Source: an uncultured Fibrobacterota bacterium
GTDB taxonomy: Bacteria > Fibrobacterota > Chitinivibrionia > Chitinivibrionales > Chitinispirillaceae
NCBI GenBank assembly: GCA_903888815.1
Contig: CAISVC010000657.1
Coordinates: 1 to 29,410 of the forward strand
Reading direction: 5' to 3'
Length of the DNA: 29,410 nt
Shown here: positions 5,672 to 19,987 of the stretch, in pieces
How the letters are laid out: the number at the start of each line of letters is the position of its first letter
Numbering within the stretch: position 1 is the stretch's first letter
Program-made: the position numbers and the translations under genes
The notes under the pieces: generated by a model
Told to the model about the DNA's origin: nothing
What the model saw: only the letters and a program-made list of their open reading frames with translations
Database searches by the model: none

Positions 5672-7024
5672 TCACTCCGGCTCCGCGGTCCCCACCTTGA
5701 TGAACGGCGCAAGTTCAGGCATGATTTTTACCAGTTCGGCGCATGCGGCCGACAGATGCTCGGCGTAACGGAAATGCGCCCCCAGTCCGGTGCGGAGTTC
5801 GATTTCGTAGATGAATTTGTCGAGGTGCATGGAGTGTTCGAAGGCCACCTGCGTACCCAGAAGCAGCCCGTAGACAAACGCCTCACCGCCGTCATGCGAC
5901 GCCAGTTTTTCGACAACCGCCTTTTTTCTGGCCAGAAGCTCCGCCAGTTTCCCGTGCTTGACGTCCGGCGGCAGATAAAAACCAACCGGTGCAAGCGGGC
6001 TGAACCTGAAGCCGGTGCGGTGGCGGTTGAGGTCGCGCAGCTCCGCCAGCCCCACGTTGTTCCATGCCGCGCGCACCAAGATCCGCCGGATTGCGGTGCC
6101 TGCGCTGCTGTAGCGGCTTGCCTTACCCTTAAAGGCTTCTTCGACCGGCTGGAACTGCGGCAAAAACGGCGGAAATTTTTTTTCCACTGAAACGTGGACC
6201 ACGTCCCCGAGCCGCTGCACCGGCACGCCGTGCTCGCGGATGCGCTGCACCGCATGCATGAAAAACTGTTCCGTCTGAGCAGCACTTGCCGCATCCGCAG
6301 CGCTGTGCTTTGTCAGGCGCGGCGTGAATTTCGCCAGCTCCGCGCGCAGCCCTGCGGCGCAGGCGCGCGCCTCAGGCAGCCCAAGCGAGTGGAGCTGTTT
6401 TATGGTGTCGGCCCAGGCGCGCGCGGTCATGATAAGCGCCGCGTTGGTTTTCGTCGCGAACGGGATAAAATAGCGGGCCCGGTCGAGCGCGAAGTTCTTG
6501 CGCAGCCGGTCCGCGATTTTGGGATTTGCCCCTTCGGGAACGCGTACCACCTCCGGTTTTTTCCGCGCCATGGTATCAAGCGTATCGTACGTCTCCTGAT
6601 ACAGCGCAAAAGCAAGCGAAAGGTATTCTTTCCATTCGCCCGAAAGCGCGCCGGGAATGCCGATTTCGTCAGGATCAGGGATACCGCTCTTGTCAAGCTT
6701 TATGTAGCGGGTGCTGCACTCCTGGCCGTCGGCGTATTGCGACAGTTCAAAGAGCTTGTAGGCGAGAAACATGGAACAGCCGTCGATCACCATGGCAATG
6801 CCGCCGGTCATTCCGGCGATCGAGGCGTGGCCGTAATCGACGAATCTGAAAATGCTGTCCACCGATTTGTCCGGATCGTTCCAGTCGATGGAGGCGAGGA
6901 TCGCGTCGATGCCTTTATTGGAACGTGAGTAGCGCGCAAGGCAGCTTGCGAGCAGCTCCGGGGTCACCGCAGGATTATTCTTTGCGCCGGGAGGAGGGCA
7001 AATACCTAATCCGATAATTCTCAT
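5672..7024 (-). CDS. thyX: FAD-dependent thymidylate synthase, tandem two-Thy1-domain type
   Basis: N-domain has LARYSRS, DYGHASI and GQECSTRY. C-domain has RDLNRHR and ELRTGLGAHFRY. At 450 aa it is about twice the size of a single-domain ThyX, as in chlamydial-type enzymes. Confidence 0.75.
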   Translation of the reverse strand: MRIIGLGICPPPGAKNNPAVTPELLASCLARYSRSNKGIDAILASIDWNDPDKSVDSIFRFVDYGHASIAGMTGGIAMVIDGCSMFLAYKLFELSQYADGQECSTRYIKLDKSGIPDPDEIGIPGALSGEWKEYLSLAFALYQETYDTLDTMARKKPEVVRVPEGANPKIADRLRKNFALDRARYFIPFATKTNAALIMTARAWADTIKQLHSLGLPEARACAAGLRAELAKFTPRLTKHSAADAASAAQTEQFFMHAVQRIREHGVPVQRLGDVVHVSVEKKFPPFLPQFQPVEEAFKGKASRYSSAGTAIRRILVRAAWNNVGLAELRDLNRHRTGFRFSPLAPVGFYLPPDVKHGKLAELLARKKAVVEKLASHDGGEAFVYGLLLGTQVAFEHSMHLDKFIYEIELRTGLGAHFRYAEHLSAACAELVKIMPELAPFIKVGTAEPE

Positions 7025-12488: not shown

Positions 12489-14231
12489 ATGCATAATGCA
12501 CAAAAACAAAACGCTGCGCAAAACATAATCATGCTGCTTGTGTTCTGCTTTTCGTATTCCGTTTTTCCCCAGATCGTCATCACCGAGATCCAGCGAGACC
12601 CCCACGGCGGCGAGACCGCTTCGCCCGGAGGAGCAAGCCATGAGTTCGTGGAGATTACCAATTTCGGCAGCGACACGGTGGGCCTCGATTCCCTCTGTCT
12701 CACCGACGGTGTTGAGGCCGATACAATCATTCCGTGGCCTGCTCCCCTGCAGATACATGATGACTGCGTTACCGGAAGCGTCCTGCTCCGGCCCGGAGGA
12801 ACCGCGGTAATTCTTGACCGCGACTATCCTGCGGCCGTGGCAAGCGTGCCGTCGAGCCGGCTGCCGATCCGGGCCGGTACCGTGCTCCTGACCGTGGGAG
12901 ACGCGGAACTCGGCAACGGCCTTGCCGGTGATGACGGAATTGTGGTTTATAAAGGGAATAAAACGCTCATCAGCCGGATCGTCTGGTGCGCTGCCGATGC
13001 TCCATTTGTTGGTACATCACCAACCGGTGGAAAGGTCGTTTTAGCCGAACCGCGCAGTGTTCCCGAAGGGTTCTCGGTTGTTCCAGTCTCATTTCTCTTT
13101 GACAGCATCCGTTATGCAATCTGCATAGACTCGCTGACTCCGGGTTCTTTTGAACTGCTCAACAACAACTGGTTTGCAGAGTGGAGGTTCGGGGCACTCG
13201 ATACCGTTCATCGGAGCTTCGCCTGTACCCTTGCCTGCCTTAAATCAGGAGCGCTGCCCGATGCTCCTGTGGGCTGGTCGGTAATCATGCAATCAACCGC
13301 AAAGACAAACACCGCAGGGCAGGGCACCTGTGCTCTGCAGGGGAATAAAGCCACGGCTTCTTTCACGCTTCCGCTCGATTCGCTCCTGTATCTTGTACAC
13401 CTGACAGAGACTACTGCCGAAACGGTCTGGCCGCTTGACGTGTCCCGGCTCTGGACTCCGGCTTCTCCGCTTAAAATCAACGAGCTCTTTCCCCGCGCCA
13501 ATGCCGGTGAGCCCGAATGGTTCGAGGTGGTCAATGTCTCTCAAATGACAATCAATCTGAAAAACTGGGCCTTCGGCAACAGCGAGGACACCGCCCTCAT
13601 TACCGCCCGGGATCTTTTCGTGCGTCCCGGCGATTTTCTCGTGCTCTCGGCCGACCGTCCGCTTTTCAATCAGCGGTATCCGGCGAAAAACAACGCGGCC
13701 GCACCCCCGCACTGGCATGCGCTTGACAATTACAATGATACGCTCTGCCTCTGGGACGCCAAAAGAAATCCCAAGGAGCGTGTCTGCTGGCGCAGCGAGT
13801 GGTTTCCCGGCTGGGGCAGCCAGTCGCTTGAACGGATTTCTCTTTCGAACTCCGGCATGGATGCCGCGTCATGGACGCTGGCCTCCCCGCCGACGCCGGG
13901 CCAGCCGAACAGCGCAATTTTCTGGCGCGCGGGCCCGCAGCCGCACCTTGACGCCGGGCCAATTCCCTTCACTCCGAACAACGACGGCCGTGATGATCGG
14001 CTTTCAATAATCATTGACTTGCCGGCAGGGTATTCGGCTGCGGTGGCAATTTACGGCTTTTCAGGGAAAAAGCTCAGAGAGTTTTCCGGCCTGCTGTCGC
14101 ACCAGATCTTCTGGGACGGCAGGCAGGACAACGGCCTGGCCGCTCCGGTAGGCCCGTTCTTCGTGGTGATGGAAGCCACGTCGGCGAAAGGAACAACTAT
14201 AGTGCGAAAAAAAGGAGTTTTATGGAGATAA
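12489..14231 (+). CDS. Secreted lamin-tail-domain (LTD) protein with gliding-motility/T9SS type-B-like (CHU_C / FlgD-Ig) C-terminal domain
   Basis: Signal peptide. Two LTD-like units (IVITEIQRDP...EFVEITN; LKINELFP...EWFEVVN). C-terminal FTPNNDGRDD...IYGFSGKKL...FWDGRQDNG..APVGPF. Confidence 0.8.
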   Translation: MHNAQKQNAAQNIIMLLVFCFSYSVFPQIVITEIQRDPHGGETASPGGASHEFVEITNFGSDTVGLDSLCLTDGVEADTIIPWPAPLQIHDDCVTGSVLLRPGGTAVILDRDYPAAVASVPSSRLPIRAGTVLLTVGDAELGNGLAGDDGIVVYKGNKTLISRIVWCAADAPFVGTSPTGGKVVLAEPRSVPEGFSVVPVSFLFDSIRYAICIDSLTPGSFELLNNNWFAEWRFGALDTVHRSFACTLACLKSGALPDAPVGWSVIMQSTAKTNTAGQGTCALQGNKATASFTLPLDSLLYLVHLTETTAETVWPLDVSRLWTPASPLKINELFPRANAGEPEWFEVVNVSQMTINLKNWAFGNSEDTALITARDLFVRPGDFLVLSADRPLFNQRYPAKNNAAAPPHWHALDNYNDTLCLWDAKRNPKERVCWRSEWFPGWGSQSLERISLSNSGMDAASWTLASPPTPGQPNSAIFWRAGPQPHLDAGPIPFTPNNDGRDDRLSIIIDLPAGYSAAVAIYGFSGKKLREFSGLLSHQIFWDGRQDNGLAAPVGPFFVVMEATSAKGTTIVRKKGVLWR

Positions 14232-14277
14232 ATAAAAAAGCCGATAGTTATAACTATAGTTCTAATGCGATTTGAAT

Positions 14278-14445
14278 GGGTGTCCCGTATACTGTTTCTG
14301 AACGTGCACACGTGGCCCGCGAAACGCAAGCGCGAATCTTCGCCTCTTGGCGAATGTTTTACCACCGCTGCTGCAAAGTTGGACGCTTGCGTTAAGCGGA
14401 GTAGTGCCACATTGTGTGCCGTGAAGAGCAGCATGCGGGACACCC
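14278..14445. repeat. Structured palindromic element, copy 1 (168 bp)
   Basis: GGGTGTCCCG...CGGGACACCC terminal stem, AACGCAAGCG/CGCTTGCGTT 10-bp stem and TTCGCC-TCTT-GGCGAA hairpin. Homologous to 18626-18792. Confidence 0.8.
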
Positions 14446-14486
14446 CAAATGATGACCCGTTTGAATCAAACTGGAACCATAAAAAT

Positions 14487-15374
14487 ATGGTCAACCCGAA
14501 AATCCATGATATATTCCGAGTCTTTCTATCACCCATCACCCTGACGGTATATATACTTTTATCTGTAAATTCTATAGCCGGTCTGCGCGATCCGTTCCCG
14601 CCCGGATTCTCAATGGGAACGCTCGGTTCCATCATTGACGAAAAAGGGGCGAGCGGCCGCGAACCATGGACAAGCGCCGCTTTCTGCGCCGATTCTGCGG
14701 GTTTCGGGTTTGCGCTGAGCGGCACCTCCTACTACGGTTCCGTGAGCGGGAGCGCAGGTAAGGACGGCATCAGCCAGGCCATGGGCGGCGGCTGGTATAT
14801 CAGGAAACATCTTGTCTGTAAAGCTTCCATCGCCCACCTGAATGCTTTCGGCGCGTACTTTGAGCAGTCCGGCTTTATTTCAATCGGGTCCGATTTTTTC
14901 CCGCTTGCCCGCCTGAGCCTTGAAGCGACCGGCTTCCGTTTTGGCGTTCATATCCCCGATAGCCCGGTGCGCACCATCGGCGAAGGGGGCGTTTCACTAT
15001 GGGTACCCTGGTCATGGGCGGCGATTTCGCTCCGCCTGCAGCATCTGGTGCTTGAAACCGCGCAGAGTGACGGCACCGATCCTACATTTACCATCCGGTG
15101 CGGCATCCATACGATGCAGAACAGCTTCGGCGGCCAGGGTGCGCTCGTCACCGTACTACCCGGCGAGCCGAAGCCGGTATGCTTTACCATCGGAGAAGAA
15201 TACTTCATAACCCCTGCAATCGCTTTCAATGCGGCGTTCTCGAACAATCCGCTTCTCATCAGCTTCGGCATGGCGTTCTCCCTCGGCCGGTCCGGCGCCG
15301 CCGTTGCTCTTGTCAACCACCCCGTCCTCGGCTGGTCCCAGGGGTTCGGGGCGGAATATTTTCGGAAAAAATAG
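14487..15374 (+). CDS. Hypothetical outer-membrane beta-barrel protein
   Basis: Start placed at ATG 14487, after the palindromic element. Signal-like N-terminus, alternating amphipathic strands, C-terminal NHPVLGWSQGFGAEYF resembling FCB-group barrel ends. Confidence 0.6.
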   Translation: MVNPKIHDIFRVFLSPITLTVYILLSVNSIAGLRDPFPPGFSMGTLGSIIDEKGASGREPWTSAAFCADSAGFGFALSGTSYYGSVSGSAGKDGISQAMGGGWYIRKHLVCKASIAHLNAFGAYFEQSGFISIGSDFFPLARLSLEATGFRFGVHIPDSPVRTIGEGGVSLWVPWSWAAISLRLQHLVLETAQSDGTDPTFTIRCGIHTMQNSFGGQGALVTVLPGEPKPVCFTIGEEYFITPAIAFNAAFSNNPLLISFGMAFSLGRSGAAVALVNHPVLGWSQGFGAEYFRKK

Positions 15375-17460: not shown

Positions 17461-18438
17461 TTACACAAGCGGCAGTTCATGTAACGCTGATAAAAACTCC
17501 TGGTCTGATATCCCGGTGTTCTGGATTGCCTCCGCGCACAGCGCGATGCGGGGCATGTCGCGCCGCAGATTATTCCATGAGTATCCGGCGTCAAACAGGT
17601 GGCCGGCAAACACGGGCAATCCGCGTACATTTTCCGACATTATCGGGGACAGGCTATAGTCCGGCGGCATTTCGGTATACGGCGCAACACTCCGGCAGAA
17701 CGCAATCGTGTCGTTGATGACCTCAGCTGCCGTAAAGGCCTTTACGGCGCTCCTTTCCCGTTCCTGGATCTCGTTCTCGTGGTGCAGACACACATGAAAA
17801 CTTTCGCGGATTTCGGAGAGCGGCGGCCCTGCGGCGAGCAGGCGGGAAACATCGAACACGTGCTTGAGCCGCTGCGCTTCTTTCCCTTTACCCACCGGAA
17901 TGCCGAGTGTGTTCGGGCCTAAGGTGAGCAGCTTGTCGCCGATGATACTCGACGGAAACGGCAGCTCGACAAGCGTTGCGCTTTCGTAAAGTTTTCCGCA
18001 CACGATTTTTTTCTTTTCGGTTTTGTACGGGGTGCGGCGCAGCTGCGCGTCGAGCATGATGGAGGTCTCGGTTCCGCCCTTTATCGCAGAATCAAAATAA
18101 AGGTAATAGCTCGCTATGGGCAACCACGGTTTTGTTTTATGCTGCCTTTTTTCCCAGCGCTTAAACACCCGGAACCGTTTAACAATCGCATCCAGTGTTT
18201 CCTCAATCTGTTCACGCGATGCGCCGGTTGCGATGTCCACGTCGATTGAAAACCGTTTCGGCTCAGGGAGAATGAGTAGCAGCGAATTGCCGCCCTTGAA
18301 CTGAAATTGCAGCCCGGCTTCGACCAGCTCGGCAACCAGCTCAAGACAGTGCACCGCCTCTTCGGCCAGTGTTGCCGGCGCATTGAAGCGATGTTTCTCG
18401 ATATGTTCGCGGGTAAAGAATCGAAGATTAGTTATCAT
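17461..18438 (-). CDS. AbiEii/AbiGii-family (DUF1814-like) nucleotidyltransferase
   Basis: FKGGNSLLL...KRFSIDVDI (NTase motifs I/II), IIGDKLLTLGPNTLGIP, and KHVFDV (motif IV-like). Confidence 0.8.
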   Translation of the reverse strand: MITNLRFFTREHIEKHRFNAPATLAEEAVHCLELVAELVEAGLQFQFKGGNSLLLILPEPKRFSIDVDIATGASREQIEETLDAIVKRFRVFKRWEKRQHKTKPWLPIASYYLYFDSAIKGGTETSIMLDAQLRRTPYKTEKKKIVCGKLYESATLVELPFPSSIIGDKLLTLGPNTLGIPVGKGKEAQRLKHVFDVSRLLAAGPPLSEIRESFHVCLHHENEIQERERSAVKAFTAAEVINDTIAFCRSVAPYTEMPPDYSLSPIMSENVRGLPVFAGHLFDAGYSWNNLRRDMPRIALCAEAIQNTGISDQEFLSALHELPLV

Positions 18439-18475: not shown

Positions 18476-18492
18476 CTTATAAATTCTTGTTC

Positions 18493-18870
18493 TGGGTGGC
18501 TGAGCCCAGTGCGCCGCCCGTTTCTAACGGTACCAAGCAATACACTCCTGATGGCGGGCACTGTCAAGCTGTCGTCTCACTTAAAATCAACTTCAAATAC
18601 AAACATCGCTGACCGGAGCTCTGAAGGAGCACCCCGTAGCTGTTTTACAGGCACACGCGCGGCCCGCGAGACGCAAGCGTGACCTTTCGCCGTAAGGCGA
18701 ATCGGCCTTGCAACACTGCAACAGAGCTGGACGCTTACGGTGAGCGGGGCAGTGCCGCATTGGGTGCCGAAAAAGAGCACACGGGGCGCTCCGTTGAAGC
18801 AGGACAACCTCGGTAATCAAAGTATTTGTAAGTAATATTTTTTGCTTGAGGCATGCGGCTCAGCCATCCA
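18493..18870. mobile_element. Putative non-autonomous (MITE-like) nested palindromic unit, 378 bp
   Basis: Terminal inverted repeats TGGGTGGCTGAGCC / GGCTCAGCCATCCA (13/14), ends TG...CA. Internal arms ACTTCAAATAC / GTATTTGTAAGT bracket element copy 2. No target-site duplication seen. Confidence 0.45.
18626..18792. repeat. Structured palindromic element, copy 2 (167 bp)
   Basis: GGAGCACCCCG...CGGGGCGCTCC terminal stem and TTCGCC-GTAA-GGCGAA hairpin. Blocks of 26/31 and 35/42 identity to 14278-14445 by manual alignment. Confidence 0.8.
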
Positions 18871-18889
18871 AAAAATCATTTTTATGTTA

Positions 18890-19987
18890 TTATTTAATCT
18901 CCACCAGCTCATACTTATCTTCCATTCCCAGTTTCCGGCAATAATCAAACATATACCCGCTTTTTATCTCCGGGCGCAGAGCGTCGAATACGTTCCCGGA
19001 CTTTACCTCCGCAGCGGCGCTCCCGGCAAGCTTCGGCGCTTTATTAATCATGTCAAGCGTTGCCCGGTCGAGCGCCAGGGGGTTGGCCGATGCTACAATG
19101 CCGATGTCCTGCACAACAGGCGCATCGTTGTAATCCCAGCAATCACAGTCCGGGCTGATTGACAGCGCAAAATTGACATACAGCGCCTTGCCCGCGAACC
19201 GCTCATGGAGCGCGGCAGCGTATTCGGCGACTTTTTCAATCAATGCCTCCCCATGTGAGTCCCATTGTATGCCCATTGCTCCGTAATTGCATGCCGCAAT
19301 GCACTGCCCGCAGCCGATGCAGGTAGTATAATTGATAACCGCCTTTTTATCCTTCATTGCAATCGCATGAACCGGACATCGACGGGCACACTGCTGACAT
19401 CCAACGCACTTTTCCGGTTTCTGAAGCGGATTGGAACCGGAATGGAGCTCAAGCTTGCCCGGCACTGCGGCGCAGCCCATGCCCATGTTCTTTATTGTGC
19501 CGCCGAATCCCATTTCGCAGTGGCCCTTGAAATGCGAGAGCATGACCAGCTTATCGGCCTGGCAGAGTGCCCCGCCGATCCTCGCCTTTTTCACGTGCTG
19601 TCCGTTCACCGGCAGTTCTTCGCAGTCAAGCCCGCGCAGTCCGTCGGCAACGATGAACGGCGCGCCGGCGGTTCCGCTGAAATAACCGTGCATCACCGCT
19701 GTTTCGTTATGATCAACCGCATTGTGCCTGCTGCCGCTGTAAAGCGTATTGGTGTCGGTCAGGAATGGCTTGGCGCCGCAGGCTTTCAGCTCCCGGACTA
19801 CCATCCGGGCGTAGTTATGGTTTACATAGGCAAGGTTGCCGCTTTCACCCACGTGGACTTTTATTGCGACAAGTTCACCGCGGCCGGCCAGTGCGTCCAG
19901 CCCCGCGCGTTTCAGCAGCCGCCCGAACTTGTCTTCGAGCGAGCAGCCGGCGCCGGCATGCAGGTTCATCCAGAATACGTTATCCAT
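18890..19987 (-). CDS. DUF362 domain protein with 2x[4Fe-4S] ferredoxin-like domain
   Basis: VAIKVHVGESGN, PFLTDTNTLYSGSRHNA, SHFKGHCEMGFGGTIKNMGMGCA, CVGCQQCARRCP and CIGCGQCIAACN, SPDCDCW. Start ATG 19987 with GGGAG SD. Confidence 0.9.
   Translation of the reverse strand: MDNVFWMNLHAGAGCSLEDKFGRLLKRAGLDALAGRGELVAIKVHVGESGNLAYVNHNYARMVVRELKACGAKPFLTDTNTLYSGSRHNAVDHNETAVMHGYFSGTAGAPFIVADGLRGLDCEELPVNGQHVKKARIGGALCQADKLVMLSHFKGHCEMGFGGTIKNMGMGCAAVPGKLELHSGSNPLQKPEKCVGCQQCARRCPVHAIAMKDKKAVINYTTCIGCGQCIAACNYGAMGIQWDSHGEALIEKVAEYAAALHERFAGKALYVNFALSISPDCDCWDYNDAPVVQDIGIVASANPLALDRATLDMINKAPKLAGSAAAEVKSGNVFDALRPEIKSGYMFDYCRKLGMEDKYELVEIK

Follow-up and report, generated by a model that had tools for sequence, protein, structure and literature searches.

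A putative lineage-specific MITE family with a covarying structured core in Chitinispirillaceae

Introduction

MITEs are usually AT-rich elements. They are described as bearing terminal inverted repeats (TIRs) and direct repeats, inserting at AT-rich intergenic sites and forming stable stem-loops (PMC10969869). In the ISL3 family of insertion sequences, ISArsp7 has a 24-bp repeat, GGCTCTTCGCGGTTGGTGGTGAAT, and 8-bp direct repeats, and ISPst2 likewise yields 8-bp repeats (PMC6305408, Table 3).

Here we analyze 29,410 nt of DNA (the window) from an uncultured member of the Chitinispirillaceae, Fibrobacterota: contig CAISVC010000657.1 (C657) of assembly GCA_903888815.1. The metagenome-assembled genome (MAG) to which it belongs, G000, comprises 752 contigs and is 82% complete. 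We assign a probability of roughly 0.8 to the reading that a structured element in the window is a lineage-specific MITE, lacking a transposase of its own and moved in trans by a DDE transposase, most likely of the ISL3 family. No previously described MITE in Fibrobacterota or Chitinispirillaceae was found in a limited literature search.

Results

Two structured copies in the window

A preliminary description of the window had reported an element of ~168 bp, present twice in the same orientation, that folds into a long rod. Both copies were found at the positions given there, on the + strand:

14278 to 14445, + strand: rod copy 1, a structured core (fold z -8.8; covariance model (CM) score 178.8 bits; covariation)
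18626 to 18792, + strand: rod copy 2, in which neither terminal repeats nor a target duplication can be recognised (CM score 160.8 bits at 18627-18791)

Aligned with the CM, the two rods share 71% identity; when extended by 50 bp of flank at either end, to stretches of 268 bp, they align with a mean column identity of 78%. Copy 1 folds with an energy of -90.6 kcal/mol and copy 2 with -80.8 kcal/mol, corresponding to z values of -8.8 and -4.1 relative to shuffled sequences. The reverse strands fold about equally well (z -8.4 for copy 1 and -5.6 for copy 2). A CM search of the window against Rfam 15 returned zero matches at the gathering threshold and none overlapping either rod at E<=10, in agreement with the earlier failure to place the element in a named family. 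The neighboring genes of the two copies are unrelated to each other, as had also been observed. The compensatory changes quoted for the pair (in the outer stem, and GTGGC/GCCAC versus GCGGC/GCCGC) are genuine, as is the change of the loop from TCTT to GTAA, and compensation generalises to 15 family members.

Family size and distribution

Beyond the two copies first described, there are many more, in G000, in a second MAG and in metagenome contigs. Searches of G000 by BLAST, nhmmer and covariance model R1 identified six full rods (two in the window and one each in C367, C489, C659 and C189) and one truncated copy (a 5' fragment in C694). G000 also has two rod-less mini forms, and the family occupies at least 9 loci there. 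The C367 rod is 96% identical to copy 1. Two rods are present in G004 (Chitinispirillaceae MAG SPRUCE 591), the sole other carrier when six other genomes of the genus were examined (2 of 7 in total). Across the phylum, rods were confined to two of the ~150 Fibrobacterota genomes sampled, G000 and G004, and none was found in the other ~150. A pattern scan of the genome collection produced 44 loci, 42 of which were chance matches in G+C-rich genomes; only SPRUCE 591 was genuine. Seven more rods were recovered from related sediment metagenome contigs by pattern scan followed by CM confirmation, the contigs being 76-91% identical to G000. The viral contigs, plasmids and phages searched contained zero rod homologues. 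The copies are dispersed and intergenic, and their orientation relative to the adjoining genes is mixed.

The fold of the rod is conserved by covariation

Fifteen family members were aligned (alignment A10). Standard pairs are formed by 95.4% of the cells in this alignment, and double-sided changes occur at 20 of the 53 pairs. None of 500 shuffles attained the observed values, and slid registers paired at 31-55%. In the rod, an outer helix of 20 bp leads into three inner helices. Conserved, asymmetric loops separate the helices (GARA facing GUGA, and a bulge of 6 nt, AGNAGU). At the tip lies a three-way junction, in which a conserved hairpin covaries from TTCGCC/GGCGAA to CCTGCC/GGCAGG. The rod subfamilies have diverged to 61-75% identity. 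Because compensatory substitutions preserved pairing during this divergence, the fold-back of the rod is under selection. The substitution pattern is that of compensatory pairing and is not codon-like. The G+C content of the rod core is 56-64%.

Wobble pairs had been reported to favor the + strand in copy 1 and the - strand in copy 2. This holds for these two copies (G-U 6 and A-C 2 in copy 1; G-U 1 and A-C 3 in copy 2), but not for the family, in which the + strand is favored, significantly so when cells are counted (G-U 47 versus A-C 12). The + strand is thus suggested as the functional strand, though not settled as such, because the sequences are related and the independent pair columns number only 19 versus 10 (p 0.14, not significant).

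The rod is the core of a larger unit with terminal repeats and target duplications

When copy 1 was compared with its 96%-identical sister in C367, homology extended from ~14258 to 14478, with the sequences diverging beyond these points. The previously reported length of ~168 bp therefore applies to the rod core, but not to the whole of copy 1, which forms the core of a 221-bp unit (14258-14478) bounded by repeats and 8-bp duplications:

14250 to 14257, no strand: left target-site duplication of copy 1, ATAACTAT (6/8 positions match ATAAAAAT; local null mean 2.0, P 0.006)
14258 to 14277, + strand: left terminal inverted repeat of copy 1, AGTTCTAATGCGATTTGAAT (family form GGCTCTAGTGCGATTTGAAT; shared among copies)
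14446 to 14458, + strand: unpaired 13-nt spacer between the rod and the right repeat, CAAATGATGACCC (11-13 nt in every repeat-bearing copy)
14459 to 14478, + strand: right terminal inverted repeat of copy 1, GTTTGAATCAAACTGGAACC, reverse complement GGTTCCAGTTTGATTCAAAC (19/20 positions match the family form)
14479 to 14486, no strand: right target-site duplication of copy 1, ATAAAAAT, partner of ATAACTAT

Family-wide, the full unit measures ~218-222 bp and consists of a 20-bp left repeat, which directly abuts the rod, a core of 165-170 bp, a spacer of 11-13 nt and a 20-bp right repeat. The terminal inverted repeats (GGCTCTAGTGCGATTTGAAT / GGTTCCAGTTTGATTCAAAT) are imperfect: the reverse complement of the right repeat, ATTTGAATCAAACTGGAACC, and the left repeat agree at 14 of 20 positions. 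Terminal repeats are present in 8-9 copies, the left repeat being common to copy 1, C367, C104, C638, C694, C659 and the metagenome copies. The duplex between left and right repeats has a z value of -1.9 in copy 1 and of -3.8 and -4.5 in sister copies. In comparisons between subfamilies, identity is 82-90% for the repeats and 71-75% for the rods.

Just outside the ends are AT-rich direct repeats of 8 bp. Over seven units together, the two flanks agree at 45 of 56 positions (local null 13.9, P<1e-5). The duplication is perfect (8/8) in C367 (TAAATTAT/TAAATTAT) and C638 (TAATTATT/TAATTATT); in C659 it reads CATATTGT/CATATTAT.

Rod-less units of 49 bp are present in C104 and C638. They contain both repeats and the first 9-10 bases of the rod, and each lies at a separate locus with its own 8-bp duplication. 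The end of the spacer (TGACCCG) and the start of the rod (TGTCCCG) form direct repeats, and the 49-bp units look like deletions between the two. As these forms have kept the repeats and possess duplications of their own, the repeats, and not the rod, suffice for mobility. Neither the 218-222-bp units nor the 49-bp derivative has coding capacity.

A solitary match to the right repeat, GGTTCTCGTTTGATTCAAAT, was noted in G000 (C80:10277-10296); an ORF with an N-terminus that by eye resembles thioredoxin reductase begins ~20 nt downstream of it. A similar match occurs in G004 (C65:16226-16245). The solitary sequence may be a relic of a MITE end or a native promoter-like motif.

Two long ORFs cross the unit of copy 1, one at 14265-15374 (+), which begins inside the element, and one at 14051-14725 (-). 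The 5' part of the former is probably spurious, because alignment with the downstream gene's orthologue in G004 does not begin until ~14505.

The target duplications bear on the REPIN-like half of the original MITE/REPIN-like proposal, taken here as an ssDNA hairpin moved by an HUH (Y1) transposase or a RAYT. A long imperfect hairpin with compensatory changes would suit such an enzyme, and G000 and G004 each contain a long Y1_Tnp-like ORF (324-330 aa). HUH enzymes make no target duplications, as is the case for the rods that lack terminal repeats (see below), whereas the bounded units have duplications of 8 bp. Moreover, no conserved tetranucleotide adjoins the rods, and the copies amount to a handful rather than hundreds. 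Y1_Tnp matches were found in 7/7 genomes of the genus, including five without rods, and neither Y1 contig of G000 carries a rod. The duplications point to a DDE transposase, not to an HUH enzyme, and we regard the REPIN reading as very improbable. The MITE half of the proposal is supported by the repeats, the duplications, the dispersal, the differing presence between genomes and the mobile mini forms.

Presence and absence at orthologous loci

Rod presence differs between related genomes at five orthologous loci. The rod is absent in G004 from both window sites and absent in G000 (C80) from the site of the G004 C9 rod, while at the L087 and L099 rod sites G000 has other sequence. The preliminary description had suggested looking for empty sites in relatives; no exact empty-site junction was recovered in the comparisons of G004 and G000, because intergenic DNA has turned over or is not alignable between these species. 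Comparison of metagenome contigs with the window yielded no excision allele either: its one signal, a skip of 172 nt with 23 letters to one side, represents the rod-less form of other loci.

Separately, at the G000 site (C443:~2790-2900) orthologous to the one where the related contig L087 has its rod, there is a short repeat-like insert with TTCGGATTTCGAATT-type units and inverted ends. Small insertions seem to accumulate preferentially at this AT-rich intergenic site.

Candidate sources of the transposase

The 8-bp duplications, together with ends of the form GGCTCT...GAAT, suggest the ISL3 family as the most likely source of the transposase, which would be a DDE enzyme acting in trans. No autonomous element with the ends of the MITE was found in G000, G004 or 46 genomes of the family. 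Insertion sequences are often missing from MAG assemblies. The only trace of ISL3 in G000 is a 77-aa remnant at a contig edge (C747:1-231; DDE domain positions 4-82), which runs directly into an unrelated proline-rich ORF; this fragment is a relic that has been truncated, or else a chimera produced in assembly. No ISL3 transposase was found in G004.

An ISL3 element of 1.43 kb is present in 15 copies (e.g. L180:973-2391) in G006, a congener without rods. Five of the six copies examined have a perfect 8-bp AT-rich target duplication, and in blastn comparisons 11 copies share 99.6-100% identity with L180. The near-identity and the perfect duplications point to a recent burst. This element was rejected as the parent of the MITE, its ends (GCCGCATCGGTAG / GGGTCATCGGTAC) not matching those of the MITE.

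A fuzzy scan of G000 for the MITE ends produced 14 left-repeat and 27 right-repeat matches. The contig with a DDE_Tnp_1 domain, C39, was not among them and was dismissed as a transposase source. Helix 1 of the rod was also considered as an alternative transposon end, but its pattern matches in 46 genomes were little above controls and none was confirmed by CM or Rfam.

Transposases of the IS256, IS6 and IS110 families are absent from G000 (for IS110, no PF01548 match), and no nuclease or recombinase gene is adjacent to the rod at any of 15 loci. The preliminary description had suggested looking for a copy beside a transposase or HUH nuclease gene; none emerged. These results also bear on whether the rod is a transposon guide RNA (an IS110 bridge RNA or a TnpB/IscB omega RNA) or a known RNA family too divergent to be recognised. 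Its size of ~170 nt, its internal loops and its association with mobile DNA would be compatible with such a role. Given the lack of IS110 in G000 and of adjacent nuclease or recombinase genes, and zero Rfam matches at the gathering threshold or at E<=10, we give this explanation almost no credence.

Rods without terminal repeats

About six of 16 rods have neither terminal repeats nor duplications: copy 2, C489 (with its G004 C53 orthologue), C189, L087, L121 and L099. Their positions are spread over the subgroups that have repeats, and they share 74-88% identity with repeat-bearing relatives, which is not predicted by simple decay of whole MITE insertions. At L087 and L099, native sequence abuts the rod directly. 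Target duplications around the repeat-less rods showed no common offset, with only copy 2 giving a 7/8 match, and pairing of the outer flanks was no better than in shuffles (copy 2 z +0.4). We read copy 2 and the approximately five other repeat-less rods as putative rearranged or nested derivatives.

Copy 2 is enclosed by a second repeat:

18481 to 18597, + strand: F2, 5' module of a second, unrelated multi-copy structured repeat enclosing copy 2 (nhmmer; alignment A11)
18857 to 18894, - strand: partial copy of the F2 5' end in inverted orientation, at the close of the enclosing unit (blastn reverse-strand matches to other F2 5' ends)

In G000, nhmmer gave 9 matches to F2 at 8 places, those outside the window being in C602, C695, C75, C243, C671, C245 and C465. 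With a 1.6-kb query, 7 further matches in G004 fell on the stretch of the window that contains F2. The second family has a hairpin module of ~110 nt (TGGATGGCTGAGCCCAGTCACCCCC...GGGGGCACTGTCAAGC), often followed by a module of ~130 nt (GCGTGAGGCAGGCG...GCCAGTCGCGAAGCGACCGACCGGAGGGTAGCCC...ACGCCCAAAA), and its ends are complementary (TTTTGG.../...CCCAAAA). The F2 hairpin shows a compensatory change in the window copy (A11), and an Rfam search of this family produced zero matches. The 5' flank of copy 2, up to ...GCTCTGAAGG, is common to a rod-less second-family copy in G000 C465, which has a different insert of 64 nt between the same flanks. A third repeated module, CCGGGGTTGTTCCGCGAACATAGGGGAYCGCCCATCG.GCGGGG, was observed in G000 (C465:2890-3134) and G004 (C13:~5750-5800); in C465 it takes the scaffold position that rod copy 2 holds in the window. 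Such repeats thus appear able to swap their inner parts.

Note that the repeat-filled gap with copy 2 lies directly upstream of a gene for an AbiEii-type nucleotidyltransferase toxin at 17461-18438 (-), beside which there is no obvious antitoxin gene.

Two readings would give the rod an existence apart from the transposon ends. It could be a self-standing structured RNA or ssDNA module that relocates, or is exchanged, independently of these ends, riding in MITEs and in the second repeat family that surrounds copy 2 but also standing by itself beside native sequence. We consider this quite unlikely. If true, it would represent a mode of mobility not described before for a structured non-coding element.

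Alternatively, the rod might be a functional multi-copy ncRNA or cis RNA module, with the repeat-less copies primary and one lineage captured between transposon ends. The covariation-conserved structure, the asymmetric internal loops and three-way tip conserved in A10, and the G-U excess on one strand (47 versus 12) would all be expected of a functional RNA, although by columns the strand bias (19 versus 10) has a p of 0.14. The repeat-less rods adjoin native sequence, and one rod has been kept at an orthologous locus in two species, with 94% identity, upstream of an RlmL-like gene. However, the copies have no promoter or terminator motif in common and no terminator 3' of the rod, in a scan without promoter rules for this phylum. 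Their mixed orientation relative to neighboring genes and their narrow range (2 of 151 genomes in the phylum and 2 of 7 genomes in the genus) also count against this explanation. In addition, the repeat-bearing copies span all rod subgroups, so that the repeats look ancestral. On this evidence the independent multi-copy ncRNA gene that had been proposed as the alternative to a mobile element is not upheld, and a functional ncRNA or cis module in the broader sense appears unlikely.

Discussion

We favor the MITE reading, with a transposase acting in trans. The element is short and non-coding, has target duplications, and is dispersed in copies whose presence differs between genomes; terminal inverted repeats are found in 8-9 copies, while ~6 rods, including copy 2, are without them. 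Several observations count against a MITE: the G+C-rich core, the match of left and right repeats at only 14 of 20 positions, the failure to find a cognate autonomous element in G000, G004 or 46 family genomes, the differing ends of the G006 ISL3 element, the lack of an exact empty site in the species compared, and the bare rods.

A transposase supplied in trans would act on the terminal repeats of the unit. The unit inserts into AT-rich intergenic sites and duplicates 8 bp, as the flanking direct repeats demonstrate. The rod, by folding back, whether as ssDNA, in cruciform shape or in read-through RNA, would most likely serve to bring the two ends of a very short element into proximity or to stabilise the element or its transcript.

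These results add a well-delimited MITE family, with terminal repeats, 8-bp duplications, mini derivatives and a covarying core, to Fibrobacterota and Chitinispirillaceae. The family accounts for assembly breaks and spurious ORFs in these MAGs, a probable example being the 5' part of ORF 14265-15374. The occurrence of the core without transposon ends would deserve study if it reflects independent mobility or exaptation.

How does the element compare with known systems? With REP/REPIN-RAYT systems it has in common intergenic hairpins, compensatory changes and a possible strand preference. REPINs, however, are shorter and far more numerous, lack target duplications and flank a RAYT gene, none of which is seen here. 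The likeness to ISL3 elements lies in the 8-bp target duplications and the AT-rich targets in this genus. Like ISArsp7, the MITE ends begin with GGCTCT and finish with GAAT, a resemblance limited to the first 6 and the last 4-5 bases. Unlike ISL3 elements, the MITE carries no transposase gene. Closest in kind are QMITE2 of Coxiella burnetii, Correia and ERIC, which likewise are short and non-coding, have terminal inverted repeats and direct repeats of 7-9 bp, and occur in multiple copies at AT-rich intergenic sites, the whole unit forming a very stable stem-loop (PMC10969869). The present family has no sequence similarity to these elements. It differs from them in that some cores occur without repeats, in its G+C-rich core with a three-way tip and conserved internal loops, and in that covariation of the core is documented across subfamilies.
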